Source: an uncultured Bacilli bacterium (GTDB lineage: Bacteria; Bacillota_I; Bacilli_A; RF39; UBA660). From it: a stretch of 64,000 nucleotides of DNA. The translations under genes and the position numbers were made by a program. Positions 445-61,427 of the stretch are shown in pieces. Where the stretch lies: positions 4,799-68,798 of the forward strand of contig CAKPMX010000001.1 in NCBI GenBank assembly GCA_934168205.1, written 5' to 3'. The notes beneath the pieces were generated by a model. The model was not told where the DNA came from. It saw only the letters and a program-made list of their open reading frames with translations, and searched no databases. Numbering within the stretch: the first letter of the stretch is position 1; the number at the start of each line of letters is the position of its first letter.

Positions 445-2031
445 TTATCTTTTACTTTCTATATATTCCTCATATGGAACACATCTATCTATAATAGAAC
501 CATCATCTAATATCTCAATAACACGATTAGTAACAGTACTATTAAGTTCATAATCACGAGAAGTAAATAATACTTCACCTTGGAAATTAATTAATCCTTT
601 ATTTAAAGATGTAATACTTTCCAAATCTAAATGGTTAGTAGGTTCATCTAATATTAAGAAGTTAGGTCCTTCTAACATTAATTTAGATAACATACAACGC
701 ATCTTTTCTCCACCTGATAAAACAGATACCTTTTTAAATACATCATCACCAGAGAATAACATTCTACCTAAGAATCCACGAAGAACTGTTTCATCCTTAA
801 TATCATAATATTGCCCTATCCATTCCATAATGTTCTTATCAACATTGAAATACTCTGTATTATCTTGAGGCAAATAAGCATAATTAATTGTCTTACCAAA
901 TTCTATAGTACCAGCATCATATTTTTCTTTACCAGTTAAAATATTAAATAAAGTTGTTTTAACCATGTCATTATTCGCAATAAAAGTAATTTTATCTCCT
1001 TTAAGAACTGTAAATGATACTTTATTTAAAATCTTTTTACCATCAACCATTTTAGTAAGATTTTCTACTTTTAATATTTCTTTACCAGCCGGTTTTTCAA
1101 TTTTAAAATCTATATAAGGATACTTTCTAGAAGAAGGTACAATTTCATCAAGTTGAATCTTATCTAACATTTTCTTTCTAGAAGTCGCTTGTTTTGACTT
1201 AGAAGCATTGGCTGAGAATCTCGCAATAAATGCTTGTAACTCTTTAATTTTTTCTTCCTTTTTCTTATTAGATTCACGCATTTGTTTTTGTAACAATTCA
1301 GATGACTCATACCAGAAATCATAGTTACCAACATATAGCTTAATCTTACCATAATCAATATCAGCAATATGTGTACAAACCTTATTTAAGAAATGTCTAT
1401 CATGAGATACAAGAATAACTGTATTATTAAAGTTTATTAAAAACTCCTCTAACCAGCGAATAGCATCTAAATCCAAACTGTTTGTAGGTTCATCCAAAAG
1501 TAAAATATCTGGATTACCAAATAAAGCTTGAGCAAGTAAAACTTTTACACGGTCCTTAACAGGAAGCTCACTCATTAAAACATAATGATATTTTTCATCT
1601 ATTCCTAAATTATTTAAAAGTGTACAAGCATCAGACTCAGCATTCCATCCATCTAAATCCATAAATTCAGCTTCTAAATTAGCTAATTTCATACCATCTT
1701 CTTCACTGAACTCAGTTTGCTCATACATCTTATTCTTTTCTTCCATGATTTTATAAAGTTTATCATTACCCATGATTACAACATCAATAACTCTATTATT
1801 ATCATATTGATAATGATCCTGTCTTAAAATAGAAAGTCTCTCATTTTTAGATATAACTATCTCTCCTGTTGTAGTTTCTATCTCACCTGACAATAACTTT
1901 AAAAATGTAGATTTACCAGATCCATTCGCACCAATTAATCCATAACAATTACCATCAGTAAATTTAATATTAACATCTTCAAACAAAGTTCTCTTTCCAA
2001 ACTTTAAACTAACATTATTAACTTGAATCAT
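445..2031 (-). CDS. ABC-F family ATPase (tandem ABC ATP-binding domains, no transmembrane domain)
   Basis: 528 aa. Two Walker A motifs (GANGSGKST and a second P-loop), LSGGE signature sequences and an inter-domain linker give the ABC-F architecture. Confidence 0.85.
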   Translation of the reverse strand: MIQVNNVSLKFGKRTLFEDVNIKFTDGNCYGLIGANGSGKSTFLKLLSGEIETTTGEIVISKNERLSILRQDHYQYDNNRVIDVVIMGNDKLYKIMEEKNKMYEQTEFSEEDGMKLANLEAEFMDLDGWNAESDACTLLNNLGIDEKYHYVLMSELPVKDRVKVLLAQALFGNPDILLLDEPTNSLDLDAIRWLEEFLINFNNTVILVSHDRHFLNKVCTHIADIDYGKIKLYVGNYDFWYESSELLQKQMRESNKKKEEKIKELQAFIARFSANASKSKQATSRKKMLDKIQLDEIVPSSRKYPYIDFKIEKPAGKEILKVENLTKMVDGKKILNKVSFTVLKGDKITFIANNDMVKTTLFNILTGKEKYDAGTIEFGKTINYAYLPQDNTEYFNVDKNIMEWIGQYYDIKDETVLRGFLGRMLFSGDDVFKKVSVLSGGEKMRCMLSKLMLEGPNFLILDEPTNHLDLESITSLNKGLINFQGEVLFTSRDYELNSTVTNRVIEILDDGSIIDRCVPYEEYIESKR

Positions 2032-2125
2032 TATCTCACCTCAAACAAAGTATTTAAATATACACAAAAACTGTGTACTTGCATTTACCATTATACTATT
2101 TAATAAACATATAAGTCAAAGTAAA

Positions 2126-2743
2126 TTATTTTCCCTTATAAAAATGTGACACAGTCTTTGCAAATTCATATAAAATAATATCACTTTTATTAATTGCAAA
2201 ACCTTTACCTAAAGCTTTACCGCCAATAGTAAGAGCTGCAACTATTGCCGCTACAAATAATCCTGTAAATAATAAGCTCCAATTAAACTGATTAGCCAAA
2301 ATTGTCGCAATAGCTGTAGCGGCTGTACCAGAAATAATTCCACAAACATCACCTACAACATCACAACAAAAGTTAGATACTTTAGAAGCATTCTTCTTAA
2401 ATTTAACAGCAATATCAGCACCTGGTACTTTACGAGAATTCATCGAATGAAAAACTGTCTCATCACTACTAGTAACACTAACACCAATGATATCAAATAA
2501 TATACCTATACCTATAAATAACAAAGTAATAAGTATACCAAAAAACAATGATAAATTAGGTATTGTAACTTGTGAAACGTATGATAAACCAAATGACAAT
2601 GCAAATGCTATTAAAACTATTTTAAGTATCCATTTATACTCTGTTTTCTTTTTACTAATTTTTTCTCTTCTTTTAGTCTCAATGACTAATTCCTTAAATT
2701 CATCTCTTTCTAATTTTTTCTTATCTTTCATATAATACCTCAC
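2126..2743 (-). CDS. oapA: Small 4-TM membrane protein with a DxxxD motif (DVVGD); candidate OLE-associated protein A
   Basis: 205 aa with four predicted TM helices and a DVVGD motif inside TM3. It lies immediately downstream, on the same strand, of a roughly 600-nt ORF-free structured-looking region. Confidence 0.45.
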   Translation of the reverse strand: MRYYMKDKKKLERDEFKELVIETKRREKISKKKTEYKWILKIVLIAFALSFGLSYVSQVTIPNLSLFFGILITLLFIGIGILFDIIGVSVTSSDETVFHSMNSRKVPGADIAVKFKKNASKVSNFCCDVVGDVCGIISGTAATAIATILANQFNWSLLFTGLFVAAIVAALTIGGKALGKGFAINKSDIILYEFAKTVSHFYKGK

Positions 2744-2789
2744 TAATTTATTTATGAAAAAAATAGTATCCTAAAATACTATTTTAAAT

Positions 2790-3400
2790 TACTTAAACTA
2801 ATGGCTATTAACATAGTAAACTTTGAATCTTAGGTCAAGTAGGATTTCCCTCATGTCTATAAATCCGTTACCAGATTTATGGTTCCCCTTTAAAGATATG
2901 AGTATGACGTCACCGTTCATACGACTTGATTACCACTTAGTATCCACTGCAATCCTATGCTAACGGCACTCTAGGAGATTTCCCCACCAATAACACTTTA
3001 TTATTAGTTCTCTTTTGCAACAGCAATTTCATAAAGCAATACTTATTATATTTGGCCAAACATTAATAAGCAAGTTCTTTAATCCCAAGACCATCACTCA
3101 AGACAAGCTACGCTGTACATAACTTTCGCCACAATACAGGTTTTATCCCATTTCGTAATGAGTCCATCAGTTAACACGTATAGGCTCACCACAATAATAG
3201 GTCTCCACAAATACTGGGTCGTTTGTCGTATGCCATTACGAGCGCCCAACATTTTTCATCTCCAGCATCCACCCTAAACTGGGCGTATAAAGCAAACACC
3301 AGAGGTTTCACAGATATGCTCTTATAACGGTTGTTTAATCCCGTCTTCCTAATAAAGTGATTGACTAGAATAATGTGCCATCAATCAGTACATATTATAT
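2790..3400 (-). ncRNA. ole: Candidate OLE (ornate large extremophilic) RNA, about 600 nt
   Basis: 690 nt with no ORF and about 40% GC, against roughly 20% GC in other intergenic regions of this window. The size matches OLE at about 610 nt. It sits directly upstream, on the same strand, of an OapA-like 4-TM DxxxD protein. No tmRNA, RNase P or SRP signature motifs were found. Confidence 0.5.
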
Positions 3401-3433
3401 CATATGTAACTAAAAATGTCAAATTTACACTTT

Positions 3434-4117
3434 TTAACTATTTCTAATTTTCTCAACAAAACTATTAATTTTTGCAGGCCAAGAACTTCCTTCAGCATAT
3501 CTTGGTGCTATTTTTTCAACAGTATCTAAACCTTGACTATAATAGTTTTTATATAAGTTATTAACAAAACCAGTAATACCCTCTTCTAAACTATTAAATC
3601 TTTTATAACTACCACCATTACATCCCGGTGCACCTTTTTGTCCACCAACGTTGTAGCAACTTCTAGCTAAGTTTGAACATCTACTTCCACAACCAGTTTC
3701 ATGTAACATTATAGCTGTTGCGACATAAGGATCGATTCCAAGTTCAATACATTTAGTCGCAATAAAGTAACCTTGTCCAGCTAATATATCTGTACCTAAA
3801 TTTCTATCTAACTTCGCTGCCAACTCTTCTATTGTTAAACCATCAAACACTTCAATTCTAGGTGGAACAATAACAGATGCTGGTGCAGCTTCCATCTCAA
3901 TAGCTGTAATAGAAGAATTATCCTCGCGTAAATCTGATTCGCTATTATTAACTAGCGCATTTTCAGAAGCTGTTATATTATTTATATTTACTTCATTATA
4001 TGAATATGATAAATCATCATTAATCTCATAAGCTTTTTCTTGTAGTTTTATTCCCATTGAAACCATTAAAACAGATATTATTAGTAAGACAACACTAATA
4101 ATTTTTGTTTTTTTCAT
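3434..4117 (-). CDS. Secreted peptidoglycan hydrolase with a mannosyl-glycoprotein endo-beta-N-acetylglucosaminidase-like domain
   Basis: N-terminal signal anchor followed by a C-terminal glucosaminidase-like domain (GYFIATKCIELGIDPYVATAIMLHETG). Confidence 0.55.
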   Translation of the reverse strand: MKKTKIISVVLLIISVLMVSMGIKLQEKAYEINDDLSYSYNEVNINNITASENALVNNSESDLREDNSSITAIEMEAAPASVIVPPRIEVFDGLTIEELAAKLDRNLGTDILAGQGYFIATKCIELGIDPYVATAIMLHETGCGSRCSNLARSCYNVGGQKGAPGCNGGSYKRFNSLEEGITGFVNNLYKNYYSQGLDTVEKIAPRYAEGSSWPAKINSFVEKIRNS

Positions 4118-4194
4118 TGAAATTCACCTCATCATTGAATAATAATCAATGTATCCATTTTACACTATTATACATAAAAAGTCAAATTTGAGCC

Positions 4195-5769
4195 CTAAGC
4201 ATGAATCCTAAAAGTACTAGGTGCATACTTATAAACAAGTTTTAAAGAAACTATAATATAAGCTCCTGTAAGTACAATTCCTAAGATAGAAAAATACAAT
4301 GAAGACATTACTAAATTAGATAAAATATAAGTCAAAACAAGTGTAATAAATGATACAAATGTATAAGAAATACCCTTTACCTGTAAGTCCTTATTATATG
4401 GTTGTAACAAATAATAAATAACTAAATAATGTACTGAGAAAAACACACTAAGTACAATAATAAATAATGGTATCATAATATAATTAATAACTAAACTGCC
4501 ATCAGTAGTAATACCAAGTAAAACTATAGAACCTATCGCAATAACTATAGCCGGCAACAAATTAATCTTAATTAACATCGTAAGTCTTTTCTTAAATAGT
4601 CCAAGTATAACATCAGGCTCTCTATAAAAATTATATCTAAGCATAGCATGATCACAATTATAAAACATTGCTTGAGTAACAACAGAACCTCTATTAATAA
4701 GATACATAATTAGTACAAACCAACCTAATCTATTAAGTAAAAAATCATGTATATTATTATAAATATCATTATTATAAAAAGATAAAACACCAAGTACAAT
4801 AATTATAATTAAGATAATCAAACTAAAATTCTTAGCACTTCTCATTAATATTTCTTTATGTCTTTCAAAAAATATTGTATTAAATAAATCATAGCCTTTC
4901 TTATCCTTTAATTTACGACCATCAATATTCTTATCTTTATCCTTAATTCTAATCATTTCTTGTCTAGCATACAAGTCACCAGCATCACTATTAATAGCAG
5001 CCTTAAAAGTATTTATTTTCTTATAAATAAGTTTATAATCTTTAATCCTCATTAAATATATATAACAAAATACACTAGCAAATAAAAATATAAATAAAGT
5101 CCAATAAATTACCATATCTGGTACAAAAATATTAAAGAAAGGTAAACTTCCTATCGCAAAAAACACTCCAATAACAACAAGTGTATGTCTATAATCAGTA
5201 GTAAATGTAATACCATGCTTCTTATAATAATAAACACTAAATGCATCTCCTACAATTCTAGCTGTTGTACTAAATAAAATAAGACATAAAGCTTCAAGAA
5301 CAGAATAATTTAAAAAACTAGATAACGTTAAAAATCCTAAAGAGTTCAATATGAATGATAAAAACAAAGTCCATATAAATGAAGCTTTCATAAACTTTTT
5401 AGCATCCATATTAAATAATATTATAGAAAAGTATTTTTTTGTACTAGTACTTAAAATACTAGGATTAATAAACATACCAATAAAAGTAAAAACAAAATAA
5501 ATAAATATAAAAGTTCTAGTAATATCATTTTTATTAATAAAACTACTAATATAATATATTACAAAGAAATAAAGTAATCTAAAAAATATAGCCCTACATG
5601 CCGACATTAAAATACTAAATGTTCTAGCAAACTTCTTAACTCTATCATTTTTATAAGCATTATCACCTATTATATTTTTTAATATCGGTAACTTTTTAAA
5701 TTGATAAATATTAGCATTTATAGCGTATGTTAAATCTATCTTTAAAGCCATTTTCAAAGTATTAAGCAT
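4195..5769 (-). CDS. Polytopic ABC transporter permease
   Basis: 524 aa with many TM helices. It overlaps the upstream ABC ATPase gene by 8 nt. Confidence 0.55.
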   Translation of the reverse strand: MLNTLKMALKIDLTYAINANIYQFKKLPILKNIIGDNAYKNDRVKKFARTFSILMSACRAIFFRLLYFFVIYYISSFINKNDITRTFIFIYFVFTFIGMFINPSILSTSTKKYFSIILFNMDAKKFMKASFIWTLFLSFILNSLGFLTLSSFLNYSVLEALCLILFSTTARIVGDAFSVYYYKKHGITFTTDYRHTLVVIGVFFAIGSLPFFNIFVPDMVIYWTLFIFLFASVFCYIYLMRIKDYKLIYKKINTFKAAINSDAGDLYARQEMIRIKDKDKNIDGRKLKDKKGYDLFNTIFFERHKEILMRSAKNFSLIILIIIIVLGVLSFYNNDIYNNIHDFLLNRLGWFVLIMYLINRGSVVTQAMFYNCDHAMLRYNFYREPDVILGLFKKRLTMLIKINLLPAIVIAIGSIVLLGITTDGSLVINYIMIPLFIIVLSVFFSVHYLVIYYLLQPYNKDLQVKGISYTFVSFITLVLTYILSNLVMSSLYFSILGIVLTGAYIIVSLKLVYKYAPSTFRIHA

Positions 5770-6530: not shown

Positions 6531-7544
6531 CTAATCATTTAATCCTTTTTTAAAATTTTCTTGATAAAGATATGAATCTCGACACATCTCTTCTATACCA
6601 AGTTCTGCTTTCCAACCTAACTCTTCATAAGCCTTAGTAGGATCTGCATAACATGCATCTATATCACCAGCACGTCTGCCAACAATTTTATAAGGAACTT
6701 TTACATTATTAACCTTTTCATATGTTGTAACCAAATCTAAAACACTATAACCAGTACCAGTACCAAGATTATAATATTTAACACCAGGTTCCTCCATAGC
6801 TTTTTCAATAGCTTTTAAGTGACCTTTAGCTAAGTCAACTACGTGAATATAATCTCTAACTCCTGTACCATCATGAGTATTATAATCATTACCAAATACA
6901 TTTAAACACTCTAATTCGCCAGCCGCAACCTTAACAATATAAGGCATTAAGTTATTAGGAATACCTTTAGGATCCTCACCAATTAAAGCTGAATGATGTG
7001 CACCAATTGGATTAAAATAACGTAATATTATTACAGAGAATTTATCATCTGAAATACTAACATCTTTTAAAATTCCTTCATTATACAACTTAGTTGAACC
7101 ATATGGATTAGTTGTAGATAAAGGAAAATCTTCCTTAATAGGTAAAGCTTTAGGTGAACCATAAACTGTTGCACTAGATGAGAATACAAATGCATTAACT
7201 TTATGTCTCTTCATGACTTTACAAAGTTTAATTGTTGAAGTTAAGTTATTTTCATAATAATTCAAAGGTAACTTAACAGATTCACCAACTGCTTTATATG
7301 CTGCAAAATGAATAACTGCATCTATCTTATTTTCAGAAAAAATCTTTTCTAGAGCATCTTCATCACAAACATCATTCTCATAAAACTTAAAAGTCTTACC
7401 AGTAATCTTCTCTATTCTATCTTTAACACTAATATCTGAATTATATAAATTGTCAACAACAACAATGTCATAACCAGCATCAAGTAACTCAACACATGTA
7501 TGACTCCCAATATAGCCTAAGCCCCCAGTAACTAAAATTTTCAT
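6531..7544 (-). CDS. galE: UDP-glucose 4-epimerase
   Basis: MKILVTGGLGYIGSH Rossmann motif and a YxxxK catalytic motif. Full-length similarity to GalE. Confidence 0.9.
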   Translation of the reverse strand: MKILVTGGLGYIGSHTCVELLDAGYDIVVVDNLYNSDISVKDRIEKITGKTFKFYENDVCDEDALEKIFSENKIDAVIHFAAYKAVGESVKLPLNYYENNLTSTIKLCKVMKRHKVNAFVFSSSATVYGSPKALPIKEDFPLSTTNPYGSTKLYNEGILKDVSISDDKFSVIILRYFNPIGAHHSALIGEDPKGIPNNLMPYIVKVAAGELECLNVFGNDYNTHDGTGVRDYIHVVDLAKGHLKAIEKAMEEPGVKYYNLGTGTGYSVLDLVTTYEKVNNVKVPYKIVGRRAGDIDACYADPTKAYEELGWKAELGIEEMCRDSYLYQENFKKGLND

Positions 7545-22240: not shown

Positions 22241-23455
22241 TTATATTAAATCATCATTCCTAGAAACATCATTAACTGGATTAGGAACATTAGTTAAAGA
22301 AGCAGGTTCTACTCCATTATTAACACCTTCAGATTGAACAGATGTAACAGGTACTTCAACACTAGACCCAGTACTAGGCATAACAGTATTAGCATTAACT
22401 GTATTGTTCATAGTAACATCATTATTAAATCCTGTGCTGGTACTCGTATTCATATTGCTCATATTATTCATGCTGTTTACACTATTAACATTATTCATAT
22501 TATTATTTGTCTCTGTAGGCATCACTGTAACACCAGTATTATTTATTGGAAAATTATTTCCAAACATATCTTGAGGTCCATTTGTTGGATTTACCATATT
22601 ATTATTAGTATTCATATTAGTAACACCAGTAACATTTTTCTTTTTTTTCTTCATAAAGAATATTACACCAATTGCTATTAAAGCAATTACTATAACAACA
22701 AGAATTGCTATATTACTTATATTATACACAGGAAAATCTAGCTTAATATCAGAATCATCATTTTGATATAAATTCATAAGATTCCAAGTTAAATGCTTAT
22801 CACCATCTTTTTCACTAGTAGCGTTACTACTAATTGCCTTATATGGAAGTTTAACTTCAAACTTCAAATCCATGCCCTTCATAGCTGTAGTATAGTCTAT
22901 ATCAGATGAATCAAATAAATCATCACTATCATCGTCATCATCATAATAATAGTCATCATCATCATAGTCATGATCATCGTCATCATCATAATCATCATCA
23001 AGCCTATAACTATCATCACCAGACATTAAATCATCAGAAGATGAACTCGAATCAATTTTCAATGTATAAATATTCTTAAAAAATCCTTTTTTTACTTGAA
23101 ATAATTTAACATTTTCATCTGTTAAAATTTCTTCCACATCAACTTCTTCAATTGCTCCTTCACTACTTAAATCATCAATATTTGGAAATTTACATAAAAT
23201 ACTTGCTCCAACCATATTTGATTCATTATAATCAGATACAGAACAATACTTATTCTTAACTTCATCCTTCAAACTAGAAATATCAGAATCATCACCATCA
23301 GTATTCATACTTTCATCAACTGCTACAATCATGCTGAAATCCATAGATTTGTCTTTCTTTATATCCATAGTCATATTATACTTAACACAACCAGTAGACA
23401 ACATCAACATAACAGCAATTAATAATAATTTAAATGTTTTAAAATTTTTTTTCAT
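22241..23455 (-). CDS. Lipoprotein (LSTGC lipobox) with a poly-Asp/Tyr acidic tract, one TM helix and an Asn-rich C-terminal tail
   Basis: Start moved to MKKNFKTF because an AGGAG RBS lies 6 nt upstream. The lipobox, a DDDDDHDYDDDDYYYDDDDD tract and the TM helix ILVVIVIALIAIGVIFF are all readable. Confidence 0.5.
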   Translation of the reverse strand: MKKNFKTFKLLLIAVMLMLSTGCVKYNMTMDIKKDKSMDFSMIVAVDESMNTDGDDSDISSLKDEVKNKYCSVSDYNESNMVGASILCKFPNIDDLSSEGAIEEVDVEEILTDENVKLFQVKKGFFKNIYTLKIDSSSSSDDLMSGDDSYRLDDDYDDDDDHDYDDDDYYYDDDDDSDDLFDSSDIDYTTAMKGMDLKFEVKLPYKAISSNATSEKDGDKHLTWNLMNLYQNDDSDIKLDFPVYNISNIAILVVIVIALIAIGVIFFMKKKKKNVTGVTNMNTNNNMVNPTNGPQDMFGNNFPINNTGVTVMPTETNNNMNNVNSVNSMNNMSNMNTSTSTGFNNDVTMNNTVNANTVMPSTGSSVEVPVTSVQSEGVNNGVEPASLTNVPNPVNDVSRNDDLI

Positions 23456-23538
23456 AATACACTCCTCTACTTTACTAAAAGTATAAAACATTTTAAATGA
23501 AAAGTAAAACAAAAAAAGAGAAATTTCTCTCTCTTTAC

Positions 23539-25558: not shown

Positions 25559-26050
25559 ATGTATAAAATAAATGACTATCTAGTCTATGGAAAAGACGTA
25601 TGTAAAGTATATGAAATAAATGAAAAAAGATTTAATAATACAGATTACTATTTATTAAAACCAATTAAAGATTCATCTTTAAAAATTGAAGTACCAGTAA
25701 CATCTAATAAAATAAGACCTGTAATAACAAAAGAAGAATTAACCAAAATAATAAAAGAAATTCCAAGTATTAAACCTATCGAAGCAAATGATAAATTCAT
25801 TGAAAATGAATATAAAAGATTATTATCAACACCAACTCATGAAAATTTAATAAGAATCATTAAAACAACTTATTTACGAAACAAGGAAAGATTAGAAAAT
25901 AATAAAAAGGTAGCTGAAAAAGATAAAAGCTACTTTGAACTAGCAGAAGAATATTTATACAATGAATTTTCTGTAGTATTAGGATACACTTTTGAAGAAA
26001 CAAAAGCTTATGTAATAAATGAAGTATTACAAAATGAAAAAAAGCGGTAA
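25559..26050 (+). CDS. CarD/CdnL/TRCF-domain family transcription factor
   Basis: An N-terminal RNAP-interacting fold (YLVYGKDVCKVYEINEKRF...YYLLKP) followed by a helical C-terminus. Confidence 0.65.
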   Translation: MYKINDYLVYGKDVCKVYEINEKRFNNTDYYLLKPIKDSSLKIEVPVTSNKIRPVITKEELTKIIKEIPSIKPIEANDKFIENEYKRLLSTPTHENLIRIIKTTYLRNKERLENNKKVAEKDKSYFELAEEYLYNEFSVVLGYTFEETKAYVINEVLQNEKKR

Positions 26051-26066
26051 ACTAAACCGCCTTTTT
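26043..26066. terminator. Bidirectional rho-independent terminator (GCGGT/ACCGC stem with flanking T and A runs)
   Basis: Hairpin read directly, between convergent genes. Confidence 0.55.
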
Positions 26067-26068
26067 GT

Positions 26069-26191
26069 TTAACTTAATAATGCTATCAAAATACCAGCAA
26101 TAAAGAAACTACTTGAAATAATCATTACAACTGTACCAATTACTTCAGCATATCCAAACTCATTTAATTTATTTTTATTTTCATCTTTCAT
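26069..26191 (-). CDS. Possible 40-aa single-TM peptide (MKDENKNKLNEFGYAEVIGTVVMIISSSFFIAGILIALLS)
   Basis: It falls below the ORF-track length cutoff. A GAGG-like RBS precedes it, and the ORF ends at the bidirectional terminator. Confidence 0.3.
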   Translation of the reverse strand: MKDENKNKLNEFGYAEVIGTVVMIISSSFFIAGILIALLS

Positions 26192-26512
26192 ACTGCAACC
26201 TCACTATCATCATTTACTATAATAAGTATATCATATTGCCAAAAAATATCAAACTACTTCTTTATGAATTCTTTCACCAGTTTCAATCAGTTAACATTAT
26301 AGTAAATTTATATATTACACAGAATATTATATTATTATGTCTTAACATACTATTATTATCATATCTTAAAACTTCAGCAATAACAGAATACTTTTTACAA
26401 TCTAAATCTTTACTATCAATATCATTTATAATATAAGCTATATACACAATTTCTATAAGAGCACCTAATTTCATATTTTTGTTCCAAAAAAAGAAAAGAG
26501 AAACTCTTTTCC

Positions 26513-28387
26513 TTAATAAGAACTACCTAAATAAGTTATAACAATAGCACCACCTGTACTACTTGGATTAGCACCAACTAATTTAGCCGTCGTACTAGCA
26601 GATAATCCTGTAAAGAAGCACTTATTAGAGATTAGCGATGAGCCTCCTCCAGCTCCACCAGCTTGGTTTGATGAAAGTGTACCAGCACCGCCGCCGCCAC
26701 CGCCACCGAAGTAGCCGCCACCGCCACCGCCTCCGTTACCAGTTCCATCTCCTCCTGCTAACAGAGTTCCGGCTTTACCAGCACCAGAATTTGCTCTAGC
26801 AACATATGTACCTCCAAGACCATTTTTTCCTTGTTTAGCCTGATTTAATGTACCATCTTCACCATGAAATACTGTACCAATGGTAATAACTGTACTAGTA
26901 CTATTCATATTACCAGCATCTCCACCATCTCCAGGTTTACCAGCAACAAGTGATGAACCAGAGCCGCCACCGCCGCCACCGACAATCATTAAAACATTGC
27001 CAGAATTAATCGTAGCTTCACTAATTGAAGTAGTATCTATCGCAAAAGCAGAATAGCCACCGCCACCACCAGGATAAGTTTGAGCACCATAACCGCCGCC
27101 ATTCGCACCACCACGAGAACTGCCAGATGCTTCACCATTACGAGCATTACCACCAAGAGTAAAGTATATCTTTTGATTATAATCTAAATTTGCAACAGCA
27201 TAAATATAGCCAGCTTCACCACGATAACCTGTGTTTTTGCTTGAGGCTCGATAATACTCTCCACCTTTACCACCCCACATCTCAATTAAATAATATCCAG
27301 GATGATAAACAGTGTCTTCTTTTGTTGTTGCCACCTTTCTATCAGTATTTACAAAAGTACCTGTAACCCAAGGCATCATTTCAAGTGAAACATTTTCAGT
27401 ATAATCACTACCGTTTAAAGTATAATTACCAGTTTTATCATAATATTCCAGCTTGGAAACAGTATAACTAAGTTCAGTTAAATCATCAGTAGTAACACTT
27501 TGTTGACCAATACCTGATACCAAAGTTTCTCCATCTTTCTTTTTGATTGAAACTAAAGCATCTGTTGGAGTTGGAGAAACAGTAAATGTATATTCTCTTT
27601 TTTGAACCAATTCTATACTTTTTGATAAAGGTCCAGTGACAATTTCAGTACCAGTCTGTGAATAATATCCATCTTTTGAAACAGACCAAGTAACTTCAGT
27701 CCCTTCATCTATTAACTTACTAACATAACCAGTTCCTGTTGCAAGTACTGTATCACCTTTTTGAAGAACTATTAAAGAATCATCTGGTATAGCAGAAATT
27801 TCATATACGTATTGTGGAATCTTATAAAACGTAAATTCCAAAGTAGATTTTAAATTAGAACTACTTCCATCAAAAAATTCTTTTAGCACTTCATATGAGG
27901 AACCAAGCAATTTACCAATGGTATCATTAGAAAATTTAAACTTAACTTGAAAAGTATACTCAGATGCAGCTGGTATAACAGTCTTATTAATTTCCATATT
28001 TATAAGCTCATAAGTAATAAGATTATTGCTAAAAACTTTATTTGCAATATTAGTTACTAAAACATTACTAGAAGACAAATTAGTAACTGTAATATCAAAA
28101 GTTACATAAGAATAAATAGCTCTTAACTGTATATCAGAGCTAAAATCTTTAACTGCATAAGAAGAGTTACTATTTACTCTACCTAAATTACCAGTTTCGG
28201 CAACCTGAGCATTAGTAATACGAATATCAGAAATAGCTCTAATTAGTCCTTCACCATTAATTGCCAAGGATGAAGAATAAGCAGAATATCCCAAAGTTAC
28301 TAACAAAATAAAAAAAGAGGTAATGATAAAAACAAAAGACCCAAGAAATTTAGAATTACTTTTTTTTGATCTTCTATTCCTTCTCAT
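26513..28387 (-). CDS. Large secreted protein: SipW-cognate-type signal region, a TasA/camelysin-like N-terminal domain, and a C-terminal polyglycine domain resembling the ALK/LTK-type glycine-rich domain
   Basis: The N-terminus LGYSAYSSSLAINGEG parallels the N-terminus of the neighbouring TasA-like protein. YVTFDITVTNLSSSNVLVTNI matches a TasA-fold strand motif. The C-terminal 260 aa contain MIVGGGGGGSGS and GGGGGGGYFGGGGGGGAG blocks reminiscent of Pfam Gly_rich. Confidence 0.55.
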   Translation of the reverse strand: MRRNRRSKKSNSKFLGSFVFIITSFFILLVTLGYSAYSSSLAINGEGLIRAISDIRITNAQVAETGNLGRVNSNSSYAVKDFSSDIQLRAIYSYVTFDITVTNLSSSNVLVTNIANKVFSNNLITYELINMEINKTVIPAASEYTFQVKFKFSNDTIGKLLGSSYEVLKEFFDGSSSNLKSTLEFTFYKIPQYVYEISAIPDDSLIVLQKGDTVLATGTGYVSKLIDEGTEVTWSVSKDGYYSQTGTEIVTGPLSKSIELVQKREYTFTVSPTPTDALVSIKKKDGETLVSGIGQQSVTTDDLTELSYTVSKLEYYDKTGNYTLNGSDYTENVSLEMMPWVTGTFVNTDRKVATTKEDTVYHPGYYLIEMWGGKGGEYYRASSKNTGYRGEAGYIYAVANLDYNQKIYFTLGGNARNGEASGSSRGGANGGGYGAQTYPGGGGGYSAFAIDTTSISEATINSGNVLMIVGGGGGGSGSSLVAGKPGDGGDAGNMNSTSTVITIGTVFHGEDGTLNQAKQGKNGLGGTYVARANSGAGKAGTLLAGGDGTGNGGGGGGGYFGGGGGGGAGTLSSNQAGGAGGGSSLISNKCFFTGLSASTTAKLVGANPSSTGGAIVITYLGSSY

Positions 28388-28399
28388 ACTTACCTCCTA

Positions 28400-29509
28400 C
28401 TATTTTTCATCATTTTTATCACTTTTTAAAACATATCTATATAAAATATCATCATTAATAATTATAAAATGACTACAATAACCAGGAACAACTTCTTTAA
28501 ATAATATTGGAGCTCCCACATTATCATGTACATCTAATAACTCCTCAAAAGAGGCTACTTTTACAAACTGATAATTGCTTGTATCAACATTACTTTCTAC
28601 ATTAGCAATGACACTATCATATTCTCTCAATATTTTATTAAGTTTCTTTTCATATTTAGTTATACTTTTTAAATACTTATCTATCATTAACACTAATTTA
28701 TAAATAATGAATATATCAACTAATAAAATTATAATAAATACTGCAATATATATAAGATTAATAAGGTCAAAACTAGCTCTTTTACTTAATGAGCCATGGT
28801 CATTAATATTATTACTATCTATAACAACAGAAAGCGTTTGTTCTGATAAAGGTATAACTACTTTAGCTTCTCCGTTAACACTAATTTCATCACTAAATTC
28901 TGAATTATTAGCATTACCAATAACATGTAAAATAATTGTTACATCACTTTCAGAAGTTAATCCATATGATGTTTTAAATGCATTAACAAAACTATTAAAT
29001 CTAGCATAATCTATAGTTACTGTTTTCCTAAAAGCTGAATACTGTGCACCCATTTTACTAATTGTTTTCTTAGGTGTAATATTCTCTTTCTTTTCAAATA
29101 AAATAGTTGCTTTATCTTTATCACCATATACTCTAGTAATAGCTTCTACATAATAAACAAAATTATAATTAACTTCTTTGTTAGTTGAAAATGAATAATC
29201 AAAATCAACTTCTATATTTTTAATTAAAGAAGCAATATAATTCATACCAGATGGTAAATGATCTACTTCATAATAATCATTTGGCTTTAAATTAACTCTA
29301 TAATCAGTTTTACTGACTTCAGTATAATTCAAATAATCAAATGATCTACTATAAAATACTTTAATTACTAATATTAAAGCAATACATGAAAGAACAGCAA
29401 CAAAACAAAATCCAAAGATTAATTTAAATGCATTACTTCCGAATTTAGTTTCTATAAATTTTTCAATTCTAGTTACCAAAGAATTAAACTTTTCCTTGAC
29501 AAGTCTCAT
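28400..29509 (-). CDS. Two-TM membrane protein of unknown function; candidate fibre anchoring or assembly accessory (TapA analogue)
   Basis: N-terminal signal anchor, a roughly 190-aa exported domain, a second TM helix and a roughly 100-aa cytoplasmic tail. It sits between sipW-like and tasA-like genes. Confidence 0.45.
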   Translation of the reverse strand: MRLVKEKFNSLVTRIEKFIETKFGSNAFKLIFGFCFVAVLSCIALILVIKVFYSRSFDYLNYTEVSKTDYRVNLKPNDYYEVDHLPSGMNYIASLIKNIEVDFDYSFSTNKEVNYNFVYYVEAITRVYGDKDKATILFEKKENITPKKTISKMGAQYSAFRKTVTIDYARFNSFVNAFKTSYGLTSESDVTIILHVIGNANNSEFSDEISVNGEAKVVIPLSEQTLSVVIDSNNINDHGSLSKRASFDLINLIYIAVFIIILLVDIFIIYKLVLMIDKYLKSITKYEKKLNKILREYDSVIANVESNVDTSNYQFVKVASFEELLDVHDNVGAPILFKEVVPGYCSHFIIINDDILYRYVLKSDKNDEK

Positions 29510-29521
29510 AATACACCTCCA

Positions 29522-30673
29522 CTACCCATTCATCTTTTCATATAGCATAACAGTAGGATAACCAATGTATCTAATCTTATGATCAGTAGTACCAAGTACT
29601 TGACTAACTTCTATCAAATAATTATCTTCATCATTATTATGATCGCCTTTAGTCTTAAAAAACATTTCTTTACCAGACTTATATATTTTTGAGATTCTAT
29701 GAACAACTATTTTTCCTTCTTGTCGAAAGATTAATACCTGACCTACTTTCAACTGTTTAATTTCCTCTTCACTAAGTTTTCTAAGTAAAACAACATCACC
29801 TTTATTAATATTTGGCGTCATTGAACCTGTTGCGATAACCAAAAGTTGATATTTAAAAAATCCAGATGTTAAGCCAACAAGAATTCCTAGTAAAACTGTA
29901 GCTATTCCTTTTATAATTAATCCAGTATGTTTAGGCCTAGATAATAATATTTCCTTTTTATCAGCCCTATCAAACAGCCTCTTAACCATAGCAAAAATAA
30001 ATACTGGCACAATTATATATACAACCGAATTAACATAATTACCAAAGTCAGGTATTATTGGTAAAATATATAATGGTACTTCCATTAATAACCTATAAAT
30101 CATGGTAGACTTATACCCAACTTTATAAGATAAATATGTAAGTAAAAAGTTTTTACTTAAACTTGGTAATACATATAATCCTAGCAGTATTAAAAGTGAT
30201 GAAAGTTTAGCATAATCAAATGAATTAATAGTAAATGTTGTATCTATTAATGTAAACACAAAAACAGAGTATACTAAAATCCATACTTTATCCTTTATCT
30301 TAGAATTAATTGTATTTCTTAATAACTCAGTAGAAATTATCAACAACAACGCCGGTACAATATTATCAAAAATATTATATATTTTAAAAGTATATACATT
30401 TTTACTAAATCCAAAGAAAAAACCAGCTACATATGTTAATATATAATAAGATAAAATACCTATTAAAATTGTTAAAATAATATCTTTATTATGTCTACTC
30501 TTATCATTAGTAAATCCTACTAAAAATGATAGTATAACTAATAATAAAGATATAAAAATAAATAATGTATATTTATTTAATATAGGAATAAGAAAGCTAT
30601 TTAAAAGTAAAATAATCATAGTAAATAGCAAACTAAGAACTATTATTAAATGACTTCTTTTCATAGCTTTCAA
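29522..30673 (-). CDS. sipW: SipW-type (ER/archaeal-type, S26B) signal peptidase I, fused to a roughly 280-aa N-terminal polytopic membrane domain
   Basis: C-terminal 100 aa: TGSMTPNINKGDVVLL (box B, catalytic Ser), VVHRI (His) and KTKGDHNNDEDNY (box D), as in B. subtilis SipW. The N-terminal 280 aa hold about 7-8 predicted TM helices that are absent from canonical SipW, which is about 190 aa. Confidence 0.7.
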   Translation of the reverse strand: MKAMKRSHLIIVLSLLFTMIILLLNSFLIPILNKYTLFIFISLLLVILSFLVGFTNDKSRHNKDIILTILIGILSYYILTYVAGFFFGFSKNVYTFKIYNIFDNIVPALLLIISTELLRNTINSKIKDKVWILVYSVFVFTLIDTTFTINSFDYAKLSSLLILLGLYVLPSLSKNFLLTYLSYKVGYKSTMIYRLLMEVPLYILPIIPDFGNYVNSVVYIIVPVFIFAMVKRLFDRADKKEILLSRPKHTGLIIKGIATVLLGILVGLTSGFFKYQLLVIATGSMTPNINKGDVVLLRKLSEEEIKQLKVGQVLIFRQEGKIVVHRISKIYKSGKEMFFKTKGDHNNDEDNYLIEVSQVLGTTDHKIRYIGYPTVMLYEKMNG

Positions 30674-30690
30674 CTCCTTATTAATTTAAA

Positions 30691-31269
30691 TTAAGCTTGT
30701 GTATATATTAAAGTTGTTTCGCCAACAGTAATAGCAATATCATCAGATGCTACTGCAGTTCCTGTTGAAGCCCAGTCAAGCTTTAAAGTAAGATCTTTGC
30801 TTTCTCCAGCAGCTAATCTATCATTAGCAGTAACGCCAGTTAAAGTATAAGATAATTCATTACAAATTGCATTAGCTTCTACAGTAGTAGCGTTGCTTCC
30901 TACTGCTGGTGCACAACTTATAGTACCCATAGTAAATGTAGATAATTCAGCATCAAGTGAACCAGAGTTAGTTACTACGAAATTATAAGTAATTGAATCT
31001 CCAGGAGCTTTTAAAGTAGCGTTAAATCCTGAAACTTGTGTATCGCTTAAAGTAGCTTCTGTATTTACTAAAGCATTACCAGTTTTAGTAGCAACTAAAG
31101 AAGTACCAGTTTTATAAGCAAACTTAACACTCCAACTAGATGGATCAACGTTTGCTGCACCAGTGATTTTTAATGTTGATGAATAAGCAGCATAACCTAT
31201 TGTTAAACCTACTACAGCAACCATCAAAGCAATAACAGCAATAATTCTAAATCCTCTTTCTTTTTGCAT
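30691..31269 (-). CDS. TasA/CalY (camelysin, peptidase M73)-family secreted fibre protein
   Basis: Signal region IGYAAYSSTLKITGAAN. LKAPGDSITYNFVVTNSGSLDAEL aligns with TasA LKPGDKLTKDFQFENNGSLAIKEV. Confidence 0.65.
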   Translation of the reverse strand: MQKERGFRIIAVIALMVAVVGLTIGYAAYSSTLKITGAANVDPSSWSVKFAYKTGTSLVATKTGNALVNTEATLSDTQVSGFNATLKAPGDSITYNFVVTNSGSLDAELSTFTMGTISCAPAVGSNATTVEANAICNELSYTLTGVTANDRLAAGESKDLTLKLDWASTGTAVASDDIAITVGETTLIYTQA

Positions 31270-31452
31270 TTTCCATATCCTCCTATCTTAGTTTTACTAT
31301 TTAATTATATCCAACATTTTATAAGTAGTCAACTATTAAACAACAGAAAAATATGAAAATCAGGCAAAAAAACACGATATATAGCATATAACAAAAGCAA
31401 ATTAACTACTCAAAAATTTAAAGAAAACATAAGTTATAACAAGGAGGTCAAT

Positions 31453-32253
31453 ATGAACAGCAACAATAAAAAAATGTGTATACCAAATAATTGTTTTATA
31501 CCAGGTCCTACTGGACCAACTGGTCCTAAAGGAAATGGCATAAACATTTTAGGAAGTTATGATACATATGAAGAATTAATAAAGAACCATCCCACCGGTT
31601 CGAAAGATGATGCTTATATAATTAACGGTGATCTATTCATCTGGTCAGACAAAGAAAAGAACTGGATTAACACCGGTAAAGTTCAAGGTCCCAAGGGAGA
31701 TCCGGGTCCTAAAGGAGACCAAGGTGAAAAAGGAGATCCCGGTCCTAATACCGTTAGAGCAGCATACCTAGTAACATTTAATGGTACCGAATCAAAAACT
31801 GGTATAACTATAGATTCAAACGGAACATTACCAATTGAAAGAAAAGAATTAGATTTAACAAATCTTGTTAATCTAAATCAAACTGAAAACACAATCAGTT
31901 TCAATGTCATAGGTTGCTACCGAATAAGTATAATTGTATCTGCTTATGTAAAAGGTATAGAAACGCCATATAACAAAACAAAAGACTTTGTCACTCTCGG
32001 ATTAAGAGAAAAAGATACTGACAATATCTACATTGGAACAAGTTCTTGGTATGAAACAGAAACAGCTAAACAAAATATAATGGAAGGAATGCTTGCTATA
32101 ACAGATACAAAAAAAGAATTTGAATTAGTAAACATAGGCAGTAAAAGCATCTGCTTAATAACACCAGACATAGAAAATATAAAATCAAAGTCATACTTCA
32201 CAAATTCACTTGTAACAGTATTCATAGAATACTTAGGAAAACAAGTAATATAA
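31453..32253 (+). CDS. Collagen-like triple-helix repeat protein (GPTGPTGPKG ... GPKGDPGPKGDQGEKGDPGP) with a roughly 170-aa C-terminal globular domain; BclA-like
   Basis: G-X-Y repeats read directly. It resembles the exosporium BclA family, whose C-terminal domain is C1q/TNF-like. Confidence 0.7.
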   Translation: MNSNNKKMCIPNNCFIPGPTGPTGPKGNGINILGSYDTYEELIKNHPTGSKDDAYIINGDLFIWSDKEKNWINTGKVQGPKGDPGPKGDQGEKGDPGPNTVRAAYLVTFNGTESKTGITIDSNGTLPIERKELDLTNLVNLNQTENTISFNVIGCYRISIIVSAYVKGIETPYNKTKDFVTLGLREKDTDNIYIGTSSWYETETAKQNIMEGMLAITDTKKEFELVNIGSKSICLITPDIENIKSKSYFTNSLVTVFIEYLGKQVI

Positions 32254-61204: not shown

Positions 61205-61360
61205 CCTTAAAAAATATAGTTACGATATATCATTTGTTGTAATCTTGATTTTACTCTTTAAAATATATCTAACGAACAACTTATATCCGTAGTAGAACCC
61301 GCCGAATTTTCGATAAACTACTAACCTCGTCATCCTAAAAGGATCAGGCGCTAAAATGAA
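61205..61360 (-). ncRNA. glmS ribozyme (GlcN6P-responsive self-cleaving riboswitch) in the glmS 5' leader
   Basis: The minus strand reads UUAGCGCCUGAUCC...GACGAGGUUAGUAGUUUAUCGAAAAUUCGGCGGGUUCUACUACGG. This matches the ribozyme core blocks AGCGCC, GACGAGG-stem-UUAUCGAAUUUUCGGCGG-stem. Confidence 0.75.
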
Positions 61361-61427
61361 TCAATACAACCTTTCTACATTCATTCTAATAATATTATAC
61401 TAAAAAAAAAGAAGTTTGTAACCTCTT

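Follow-up and report, generated by a model that had tools for sequence, protein, structure and literature searches.

A TasA/AbpX-type surface fibre as the most likely product of an operon in an uncultured low-GC gut bacterium

The window analysed here, i.e. the whole 64-kb stretch of DNA, carries on its minus strand four closely spaced ORFs (30691–31269, 29522–30664/30673, 28400–29509 and 26513–28387), separated by 12–17 nt, just in the order given in a preliminary description of the region made from the sequence alone. The first of them is preceded by a ribosome-binding site and a promoter-like site, the latter being, as a match to the consensus alone, the best sigma-70-type match of the region (11 of 12 positions). 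The short gaps, together with this one good promoter-like site, speak for an operon. The individual features are as follows:

31304–31332, minus strand: promoter-like site (TTGACT, 17-nt spacer, TATAAT), upstream of the first (192-aa) gene
about 31277–31282, minus strand: ribosome-binding site AGGAGG, 5' of the 192-aa gene
30691–31269, minus strand: putative major fibre subunit, 192 aa
31189–31269, minus strand: signal peptide of the 192-aa protein (residues 1–27), putative cleavage GYA↓AYSS
31129–31188, minus strand: putative donor strand of the 192-aa protein (residues 28–47)
residues 48–192 of the 192-aa protein: β-sandwich core with the motif PGDSITYNFVVTNSGSLDA (30949–31008) and Cys119/Cys136
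29522–30664, minus strand: dedicated signal peptidase I, 380 aa (alternative TTG start at 30673)
29927–30664, minus strand: 8-TM N-terminal domain of the peptidase (residues 1–246), E113 and R116 invariant
residues 247–273 of the peptidase: anchor TM
29525–29845, minus strand: S26B catalytic domain of the peptidase (residues 274–380), predicted to be extracytoplasmic, with Ser281, His322, Asp341 and Asp347
28400–29509, minus strand: DUF5305 protein, 369 aa, putative signal-peptidase accessory subunit, with TM1 (residues 31–49), an ectodomain of ~200 aa, TM2 (252–270) and a cytoplasmic C-terminal domain (271–369)
26513–28387, minus strand: putative tip/minor subunit, 624 aa
residues 1–35 of the 624-aa protein: signal peptide, putative cleavage GYS↓AYSS
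residues 36–54 of the 624-aa protein: putative donor segment
27818–28225, minus strand: subunit-like β-domain of the 624-aa protein (residues 55–190)
27383–27814, minus strand: two stalk domains of ~70 aa each (residues 192–335)
26516–27361, minus strand: ALK/LTK-type glycine-rich domain (GRD; residues 343–624)

The four-gene cassette is kept in related metagenomic contigs, down to ~39% identity of the peptidase membrane domain. A survey of clostridial genomes had been suggested; the cassette did prove conserved, but the comparison loci (designated L003, L005 and so on) are not demonstrably clostridial, since they come from metagenome-assembled genomes of uncultured low-GC Bacillota labelled 'bacterium', 'uncultured Mycoplasma sp.' or 'Erysipelotrichaceae bacterium'. 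The flanking genes are of the housekeeping type (HtpG, phosphoketolase, alcohol dehydrogenase) and syntenic across relatives. Genes for a cell-wall anchor, a sortase or a regulator are missing from the locus, and within the window neither an LPXTG/SLH anchor nor a sortase nor a c-di-GMP/two-component regulator adjoins the cassette; a GGDEF gene is present in the locus of one distant relative. A divergent collagen-like (BclA-like) gene (31453–32253) adjoins the operon and occupies the same position in the close relative L003, while it is absent from L005–L008. In L005, cotJB and a Mn-catalase (cotJC-like) gene are found ~5 kb from the cassette.

These two neighbourhoods, together with the title 'Spore coat-associated protein N' under which the TasA crystal entries 5of1/5of2 were deposited, would suit a spore-surface appendage or an exosporium-associated structure rather than a vegetative biofilm or adhesion fibre. 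This is, however, rather improbable, as the collagen-like gene is not kept in L005–L008 and the promoter match that scores best upstream is of the sigma-70 type, with no signals for sporulation sigma factors. It should be noted that such a reading concerns the time and place of the fibre and is compatible with the mechanism considered below.

Concerning the second gene, the ATG at 30664 is most likely the true start instead of the TTG at 30673 (giving 383 aa), because GGAG lies 9 nt upstream of it and the homologues are ~380 aa long. The assignment of the C-terminal third of the protein to the family S26B, proposed previously from its SipW-type boxes, was borne out: the NCBIfam profile TIGR02228 scored 84.4 bits against a cut-off of 51.85 bits, and the closest solved relatives are SEC11A/C (E-value 1e-10 when the single sequence was used and 1.4e-21 with the family profile), the bacterial Lys-type signal peptidases (SPases) matching far more weakly, at E-values of at least 1e-4. 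The motifs GSMTP (residues 280–284), VVHRIS (320–325) and KGDHNND (339–345) are all present; GSM (Ser281), VHR (His322) and GDxNxxxD (Asp341, Asp347) align with SEC11A/C and are invariant in 32 diverse homologues, all 32 family members having the S26/S24 match. The enzyme thus possesses the serine nucleophile, the histidine (not lysine) general base and the conserved aspartates characteristic of S26B. It is not an orthologue of SipW itself, since it scored only 73 bits against the cut-off of 190 for the Bacillus SipW equivalog NF046067.

The N-terminal part is indeed a polytopic membrane domain, although the earlier count of 7–8 helices has to be revised to eight helices plus the anchor. Nine hydrophobic segments alternating with K/R-rich loops in the family-averaged hydropathy correspond to 9 TM with the N-in/C-out topology, and it is from the hydropathy that the catalytic domain is predicted to lie outside the membrane. 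The eight-helix domain has no relative in Pfam or PDB; used alone as a query, it retrieved 754 cluster representatives, nearly all of the best 150 being 370–390 aa long, and it may serve as a platform for assembly or retention.

The third protein, described previously just as a 2-TM accessory protein, could be identified as a member of DUF5305 (PF17231; 50.5 bits versus a 29-bit cut-off, residues 140–359). Its two hydrophobic segments agree with the arrangement of two TM helices, an ectodomain and a cytoplasmic C-terminal domain, the same architecture being described in bioRxiv 10.64898/2026.01.04.697558. A role of DUF5305 as an SPase accessory in Tafi/AbpX loci has been proposed (PMC11821415, PMC12337348, bioRxiv 10.64898/2026.01.04.697558), and fusions of SPase with DUF5305 have been reported in the literature, including the latter preprint. 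Here, the two genes are adjacent, and the DUF5305 protein would probably work with the operon peptidase; it directly follows the peptidase gene also in L003, L005–L008, L011 and L013.

The 192-aa protein was thought to be TasA-like, with the M73 and TIGR04088 profiles named as the means of recognizing it, yet neither profile supports this: Peptidase_M73 (PF12389) scored 15.4 bits, i.e. below the gathering threshold of 22.5, and TIGR04088 (SipW-cognate signal) gave no NCBIfam match at E ≤ 1 in either the 192-aa or the 624-aa protein. Weak M73 matches were obtained for 13 of the 22 subunit homologues (best E-value 3.3e-4). The PDB sequence-profile match to TasA has an E-value of 0.2, the TasA fibre ranks first in the Foldseek search, and hhalign against AbpX gave 87.7%, compared with 1.3% for an unrelated signal-anchored control; the probability is 30% without the signal peptide. 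The TasA relationship is remote, resting on profile and fold comparison.

The 624-aa protein was presented as a TasA-like N-terminal region joined to a Gly-rich domain. The latter is well founded, the GRD scoring above the cut-off of PF12810 and matching the fold of a solved GRD, i.e. the polyglycine domain type present in the human ALK receptor. The N-terminal domain is homologous to the 192-aa subunit, although without an M73 match at E ≤ 1, and it shows no direct match to AbpX. The two-part picture was, moreover, incomplete, because two β-domains of ~70 aa lie between these parts, resembling the CnaB/transthyretin-type pilin domains, such resemblance being confined to this stalk.

Proteins of phage tails, namely Bxb1 gp33 and the Pam3 fibre, have the GRD fold as well, and the GRD region gave weak PHROG matches (phrog_7388, 5.7e-11), so that a remnant of a prophage or a tail fibre was also considered. 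Such an origin is extremely improbable, since tblastn of the 624-aa protein against 50,697 phage records returned no match, no meaningful PHROG match was obtained for the remaining three proteins and the flanks are the syntenic housekeeping genes mentioned above.

The two secreted proteins had been said to share a signal segment, and they have in fact in common both a signal/donor segment and the homologous N-domain. Within the 64-kb window the motif was found in the 192-aa and 624-aa ORFs alone, and wherever the pattern gave a match in a related locus, it did so in subunit or tip ORFs alone; it missed the subunits of L009, L011 and L013, which are more divergent. The [GA][YF]A signature is near-invariant in 22 subunits and its equivalent holds in 27 tip proteins; it runs, after the hydrophobic stretch, into an amphipathic strand S-x-T-L-x-I-x-G conserved in both families. 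The context of the putative cleavage site—aromatic-Ala↓Ala-aromatic—parallels that of TasA (TWA↓AF) and AbpX (TYA↓QWSETLSL). In both monomer models the N-terminal strand segment is unstructured (pLDDT below 50 or ~50), as expected of an unpaired donor strand.

The N-termini, with a short basic leader and a subsequent hydrophobic helix (MQKERG↓FRIIAV...), might alternatively be taken for class III signal peptides of type IV pilin-like proteins, cut before the helix by a prepilin peptidase; three homologues gave weak Pilin_N matches in Pfam (best E-value 0.079). This is very unlikely, given that the glycine preceding the helix is variable, homologues having T, S, K or N there, whereas the invariant Y26 and A27 follow the helix, and that the locus codes for an SPase I but for neither a prepilin peptidase nor an assembly ATPase nor a platform protein. 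A T2SSE ATPase gene does occur ~6 kb upstream in L006–L008, but on the opposite strand, and it is absent from the other loci. Sortase-dependent Gram-positive pili were rejected, too, the C-termini (...TTLIYTQA and ...ITYLGSSY) being without LPXTG and the locus without a sortase ORF.

A more serious question is whether there is a polymer at all. The peptidase, along with the DUF5305 protein, could serve two independent surface or secreted proteins, namely a small monomeric β-sandwich protein that possibly binds carbohydrate, and a GRD adhesin, which would be either anchored in the membrane by an uncleaved signal anchor or released. The 192-aa protein does score above gathering for Pfam CBM_2 (26.9 versus 24 bits), a match that 9 of the 22 homologues also give, and its likeness to TasA/AbpX is sub-threshold in the curated models. 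On the other hand, CBM2 structures are placed low in both fold searches, the motif with its amphipathic strand is kept in both protein families and matches the AbpX donor strand, the putative tip protein bears a copy of the subunit fold exactly where co-assembly needs one, and the same gene set accompanies the demonstrated donor-strand fibres Tafi and AbpX. Two independent proteins thus appear an unlikely outcome.

Based on the above results, the locus is best explained, with a fair degree of probability, as an operon for a sortase-independent fibre (pilus or biomatrix) of the TasA superfamily, complete in itself and organised most like the AbpX loci. The earlier idea of a dedicated peptidase processing a fibre subunit and a capping subunit stands as the best reading, the polymer itself being inferred. 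Both the 192-aa protein, as the major subunit, and the 624-aa protein, as the terminal tip-type subunit, would be exported via an N-terminal signal anchor and cleaved after [G/A]-[Y/F]-[A/S] by the ER-type signal peptidase of the operon, probably with the DUF5305 protein. The N-terminal strand A-Y-S-x-T-L-x-I-x-G freed in this way would enter the β-sandwich of a neighbouring subunit by donor-strand complementation, yielding a linear polymer, which the 624-aa protein would join through its subunit-like N-domain, displaying the polyglycine-II (ALK-type) domain on the stalk of two domains. The most plausible role of the latter domain type would be binding at the distal end, and in phage fibres relatives of this fold do occupy the distal ends.

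The AbpX loci of archaea and Bacillota/Chloroflexota, described in January 2026 (bioRxiv 10.64898/2026.01.04.697558), combine a TasA-superfamily subunit with a multi-TM SPase I, a DUF5305 protein and a tip protein, the tip/minor subunit being predicted to co-assemble by donor-strand complementation. Shared with the present operon are the subunit of ~165 mature residues, the dedicated many-TM SPase I, DUF5305, the larger tip/minor subunit, the signal/cleavage/donor segment (TYA↓QWSETLSL in AbpX, GYA↓AYSSTLKI here), an aromatic second residue in the mature protein (Y or F here, in 18 of the 22 homologues), two cysteines and the acidic character (pI 4.29 here). The AbpX criteria given in the preprint (bioRxiv 10.64898/2026.01.04.697558), besides the aromatic position 2 and a pI of about 4, comprise an acidic position 4 (for Ca2+-mediated strand complementation) and ~15% Asp/Glu. 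Here, in contrast, only 5 of the 22 homologues have an acidic residue at position 4 (Ser in the 192-aa protein) and D+E amounts to 9.1%, at variance with the AbpX pattern. Further differences are the weak core similarity, the lack of the adjoining anchor, sortase and regulator genes, nine TM counted here versus ten in the preprint—the identity of the two peptidase families not being implied—and the GRD of the tip, a domain not mentioned in that preprint.

The tapA-sipW-tasA operon of Bacillus subtilis (TasA fibres, PDB 8aur) also has a dedicated ER-type peptidase for a major and a minor subunit, and in TasA, too, an aromatic residue flanks the cleavage site and the PGDxxTxxFxxxNxGSL motif aligns. 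SipW is, however, without the 8-TM extension, the Bacillus locus without a DUF5305 gene and the present one without a TapA homologue, the minor subunit here consisting of a subunit-like domain, stalk and GRD; the major subunit is smaller than TasA (165 versus 233 mature residues) and below the M73 threshold. In the Tat-fimbriae (Tafi) of haloarchaea (PMC11821415, PMC12337348; PDB 9p0a), donor-strand pilins are likewise accompanied by a signal peptidase (TafD), a DUF5305 protein (TafG) and a distinct tip protein, modelled to give the first donor strand. That archaeal system differs in the export of subunits by the Tat pathway, in the four TM helices and the N-terminal peptidase domain of TafD, and in the extra adapter, anchor and regulator genes. 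With the GRDs of ALK/LTK and the polyglycine-II adhesins of phages (S16 gp38, Bxb1 gp33, Pam3 fibre), the phage proteins having the domain at their distal end, where binding occurs, the tip shares PF12810 above the cut-off; here, a bacterial subunit of the fibre type carries it as its C-terminal module, and not a receptor kinase or a virion.

The gene combination, presented earlier as having no known precedent, is therefore already on record: the operon architecture is not new, the AbpX loci with multi-TM SPase I, DUF5305 and tip proteins being the subject of the January 2026 preprint (bioRxiv 10.64898/2026.01.04.697558), and SPase with DUF5305 appearing for Tafi in PMC11821415 and PMC12337348. 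The novelty lies in the gut lineage, in the divergent family of subunits and in the GRD borne by the tip. A farther-reaching proposal, speculative when all its parts are taken together, is that abundant uncultured Bacillota of the human gut carry sortase-independent pili of a widespread class not seen before, with peptidase-coupled assembly and an ALK-type adhesin. The 8-TM extension and the DUF5305 protein would then form an assembly platform, at which a subunit tethered by its uncleaved signal anchor would accept the strand of the previous one and only afterwards be cleaved to donate its own; a mechanical coupling would thereby link cleavage with polymerisation, no anchor protein would be needed to retain the fibre, and the distal subunit, incorporated first, would present its ALK-type polyglycine-II domain, an adhesin that would bind the host or glycans. 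If this were true, bacterial fibres would be a natural setting for the fold by which metazoan ALK/LTK receptors bind cytokines.

The locus consists of four minus-strand ORFs, the positions of which agree exactly with those of the preliminary description:

30691-31269, minus strand, ORF of the 192-aa subunit gene
29522-30673, minus strand, ORF of the peptidase gene, 383 aa from a TTG start
28400-29509, minus strand, ORF of the DUF5305 gene, 369 aa
26513-28387, minus strand, ORF of the tip protein gene, 624 aa

The four genes look like one operon, since they are separated by only 12-17 nt and the first of them is preceded by an AGGAGG ribosome-binding site and by a sigma-70-like site that, with 11/12 positions matched, is the best one in the region. 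As regards the peptidase, its start is most likely the ATG at 30664, giving 380 aa, because GGAG is positioned 9 nt upstream and the homologues are ~380 aa long. No terminator-like hairpin was found directly after the 624-aa gene (26051-26512), the sole one being a bidirectional hairpin at 26038-26066, ~450 nt downstream, common to a convergent CarD-like gene. The flanking genes are housekeeping ones (HtpG, phosphoketolase and zinc alcohol dehydrogenase) and the GC content is ~28%; the possibility that the locus is a prophage remnant was rejected after comparisons with phage records and PHROGs, and it is considered extremely improbable.

The gene at 31453-32253 (plus strand), divergent from the operon, encodes a collagen-like protein of 266 aa, composed of GPTGPTGPKG and GPKGDPGPKGDQGEKGDPGP repeats and a C-terminal globular domain of ~170 aa, with PHROG tail-fibre matches coming from the collagen repeats only. 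It is kept at the equivalent position in the closely related metagenomic contig L003 (6279-7076, minus strand) and is missing from the related contigs L005-L008. The window further contains a 423-aa membrane protein (22241-23512, minus strand) with a C-terminal tail rich in N/T/S and an extreme acidic poly-Asp/Tyr tract (DDDYDDDDDHDYDDDDYYYDDDDDSDD), also present in the syntenic L003 (14667-15950), as well as a glmS ribozyme (61214-61363, minus strand) and a full-length OLE (ornate large extremophilic) RNA (2785-3397, minus strand; 387 bits versus the 50-bit gathering score), the host of the latter being apparently a low-GC gut-associated Bacillota MAG.

The C-terminal part of the peptidase had been ascribed to the S26B type, and the assignment was upheld by the NCBIfam model TIGR02228 (archaeal/ER-type SPase I), matching residues 254-377 in the 380-aa numbering (257-380 counted from the TTG start) with 84.4 bits versus a cut-off of 51.85; the score with the Bacillus SipW equivalog model was far under its cut-off. 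The closest solved relatives are human SEC11A/C, with E-values of 1e-10 for the single sequence and 1.4e-21 for the family profile, to which the GSM-Ser, VHR-His and GDxN...D elements can be aligned, the bacterial Lys-type SPases being matched more weakly (E >= 1e-4 at best). Across 32 diverse homologues Ser281, His322, Asp341 and Asp347 are invariant, and so are E113 and R116 of the membrane domain. [quoted passage not shown] These segments alternate with K/R-rich loops, which fits an N-in/C-out topology and hence a predicted location of the catalytic domain outside. For the 8-TM domain neither a Pfam family nor a solved relative was found in Pfam and PDB profile searches. Searched against 1.84 billion representatives, the first 256 residues alone retrieved 754 clusters (50% identity), with lengths of 370-390 aa in nearly all of the best 150 listed; the 8-TM/peptidase fusion is therefore an established and widespread family. 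In the 4.5-kb related contig L009, the 8-TM domain is joined to a Metallophos/5'-nucleotidase-type domain replacing the signal peptidase (P0381, 812 aa; 1896-4334), the gene being preceded by one for a 190-aa subunit-like protein; it could be a genuine alternative fusion or a chimera created by the assembly.

The 369-aa protein belongs to DUF5305 (50.5 bits versus 29), having an ectodomain of ~200 aa between two TM segments and a C-terminal domain in the cytoplasm; no solved relative was found by sequence. In the haloarchaeal Tafi loci, DUF5305 corresponds to TafG, a proposed helper of the signal peptidase TafD, and outside haloarchaea SPase I-DUF5305 fusions sometimes occur (PMC11821415, PMC12337348).

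Concerning the 192-aa subunit, the proposed placement in TasA/M73 was not borne out by the curated models, Pfam Peptidase_M73 remaining under threshold (15.4 bits versus 22.5) and TIGR04088 giving no match. Weak M73 matches occur in 13 of the 22 homologues, all on the motif PGDxxTYxFxVxNxGxLDA. The best PDB sequence for the subunit-family profile is TasA, at an E-value of 0.2 only, and it remained the sole PDB profile match after divergent subunits had been added. In Foldseek, the AF2 model (pLDDT 83.9) was matched best by the TasA fibre 8aur (probability 0.99, E 2.8e-3), with donor-strand pilins next. Judged from profiles and the model, the remote relationship to TasA appears to be real. In hhalign comparisons, the subunit family matched the published AbpX sequence with 87.7% (E 3.4e-6, 160 columns) and TasA with 47.5%; an unrelated signal-anchored protein of the window, used as a control of whether hydrophobicity drove the former value, gave 1.3%. 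Since the AbpX match falls to 30% once the AbpX signal is removed, much of the specific similarity resides in the stretch spanning the cleavage site and the donor strand (IGLTYA|QWSETLSLS in AbpX and LTIGYA|AYSSTLKIT in the subunit), and the assignment to AbpX is therefore tentative. Nor is the protein a typical AbpX, given its D+E content of 9% and the lack of conservation of the acidic residue at position 4. We conclude that it is best described as a divergent subunit of the TasA superfamily with an AbpX-like N-terminus, outside Pfam M73. It should be pointed out that Pfam CBM_2, a cellulose-binding domain, scored above its gathering value on residues 30-110 (26.9 bits versus 24), as well as in 9 of the 22 homologues; it was rejected, CBM2 structures ranking low in both fold searches, and the match probably reflects a cross-match between T/S-rich beta-sandwiches, or composition.

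With regard to the 624-aa protein, pairwise BLAST against the subunit saw only the segment V..T.GY.AYSS.L.I.G in common; the profile-profile comparison of both families reached through the beta-sandwich with 98.3% probability (E 1.5e-14, 143 columns). The motif [GA][YF][AS]|A[YF][ST]x[TS]Lx[IV]xG is kept in both families and, in six-frame translations of the 64-kb window, was found only in these two ORFs; in those related loci that gave matches, these fell on subunit and tip ORFs alone. In both monomer models the segment following the signal helix is unstructured. A type IV pilin-like nature of the secreted proteins was rejected and is rated very improbable, their conserved residues lying after, not before, the hydrophobic helix. 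The claim of a glycine-rich domain (GRD) of the ALK/LTK type proved correct: PF12810 (ALK_LTK_GRD) scores 53.9 bits versus 24.5, and 27 homologues, down to 33% identity, exhibit 47 invariant columns, mostly Gly, along with conserved non-Gly motifs, indicating a folded domain rather than low complexity. The AF2 model has a high confidence (pLDDT 87.7). Between the N-domain and the GRD, the protein contains two beta domains of ~70 aa each, absent from the preliminary description and resembling transthyretin/CnaB-type stalk domains of Gram-positive adhesins. The PDB profile search with the N-domain gave no match.

A contig scan with the single peptidase sequence yielded four close relatives, the wider context having been obtained from exact-protein look-ups. 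The same four-gene cassette is present, at ~54% peptidase identity, in human-gut contigs, Hadza samples included, and also in contig L011 at 39% membrane-domain identity. L003, from a MAG that bears the label 'uncultured Mycoplasma sp.', shows full synteny with the window; L005 (50% identity) carries the subunit, peptidase and DUF5305 genes plus a downstream gene cut by the contig end, and the more distant L013 retains the first three, the GRD gene being missing. In L005, a shortened 111-aa second subunit copy (6711-7046, plus strand), possibly a decayed duplicate, lies upstream of the complete 199-aa gene. In L014 (29% membrane-domain identity), the fused peptidase is directly followed by a GGDEF diguanylate cyclase gene (1493-2932), an arrangement reminiscent of bacterial abpX loci, in the vicinity of which c-di-GMP genes have been reported (bioRxiv 10.64898/2026.01.04.697558).

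The locus thus encodes a predicted extracytoplasmic S26B peptidase, intact and fused to an 8-TM domain, with an adjoining DUF5305 gene, and two putative substrates with a specific common motif and homologous N-domains, one of them bearing a genuine GRD on a stalk. Of the overall interpretation offered previously, the S26B and GRD parts stand and the M73/TIGR04088 part does not. By analogy with TasA (TWA|AF) and AbpX (TYA|QW), cleavage would occur after GYA/GYS; the subunits may then polymerise through donor-strand complementation, and the GRD protein would be placed at the fibre terminus with a putative binding role. More speculatively, cleavage and strand exchange could be coupled at the membrane platform, which would also account for the absence of an anchor gene. 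Two surface proteins that share the dedicated peptidase and do not polymerise are a rather unlikely alternative to such a fibre, and a location of the fibre on the spore surface, compatible with the donor-strand mechanism, seems less likely still.

The claimed novelty of the gene combination is weakened, since its operon logic is already known from the AbpX preprint and the Tafi and ABP papers, and this limits the surprise. In most abpX loci, SPase I and a DUF5305 accessory are reported to be encoded together with minor subunits and with predicted tip proteins that differ in structure (bioRxiv 10.64898/2026.01.04.697558); in Tafi, tip, adapter and anchor subunits occur beside SPase and DUF5305 (PMC11821415, PMC12337348), and the ABP paper proposed that a TapA-like protein starts the assembly by donating the first strand, distal domains being adhesins. 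Literature searches for PF12810/GRD or polyglycine domains in connection with TasA-like fibres gave no match, and the term 'glycine-rich' is absent from the TasA-like papers listed. The locus draws attention to the large family of membrane domains joined to signal peptidase, and it offers a bacterial structural setting for the ALK/LTK glycine-rich fold, which is known elsewhere from receptor kinases and phage fibres. The protein clusters comprise sequences in the hundreds, and gut metagenomes, those of the Hadza among them, are represented in the contigs; should the reading hold, donor-strand fibres of the TasA/AbpX type would reach, beyond soil bacilli and extremophile archaea, common uncultured bacteria of the human gut, for which the GRD tip is a concrete adhesin candidate.
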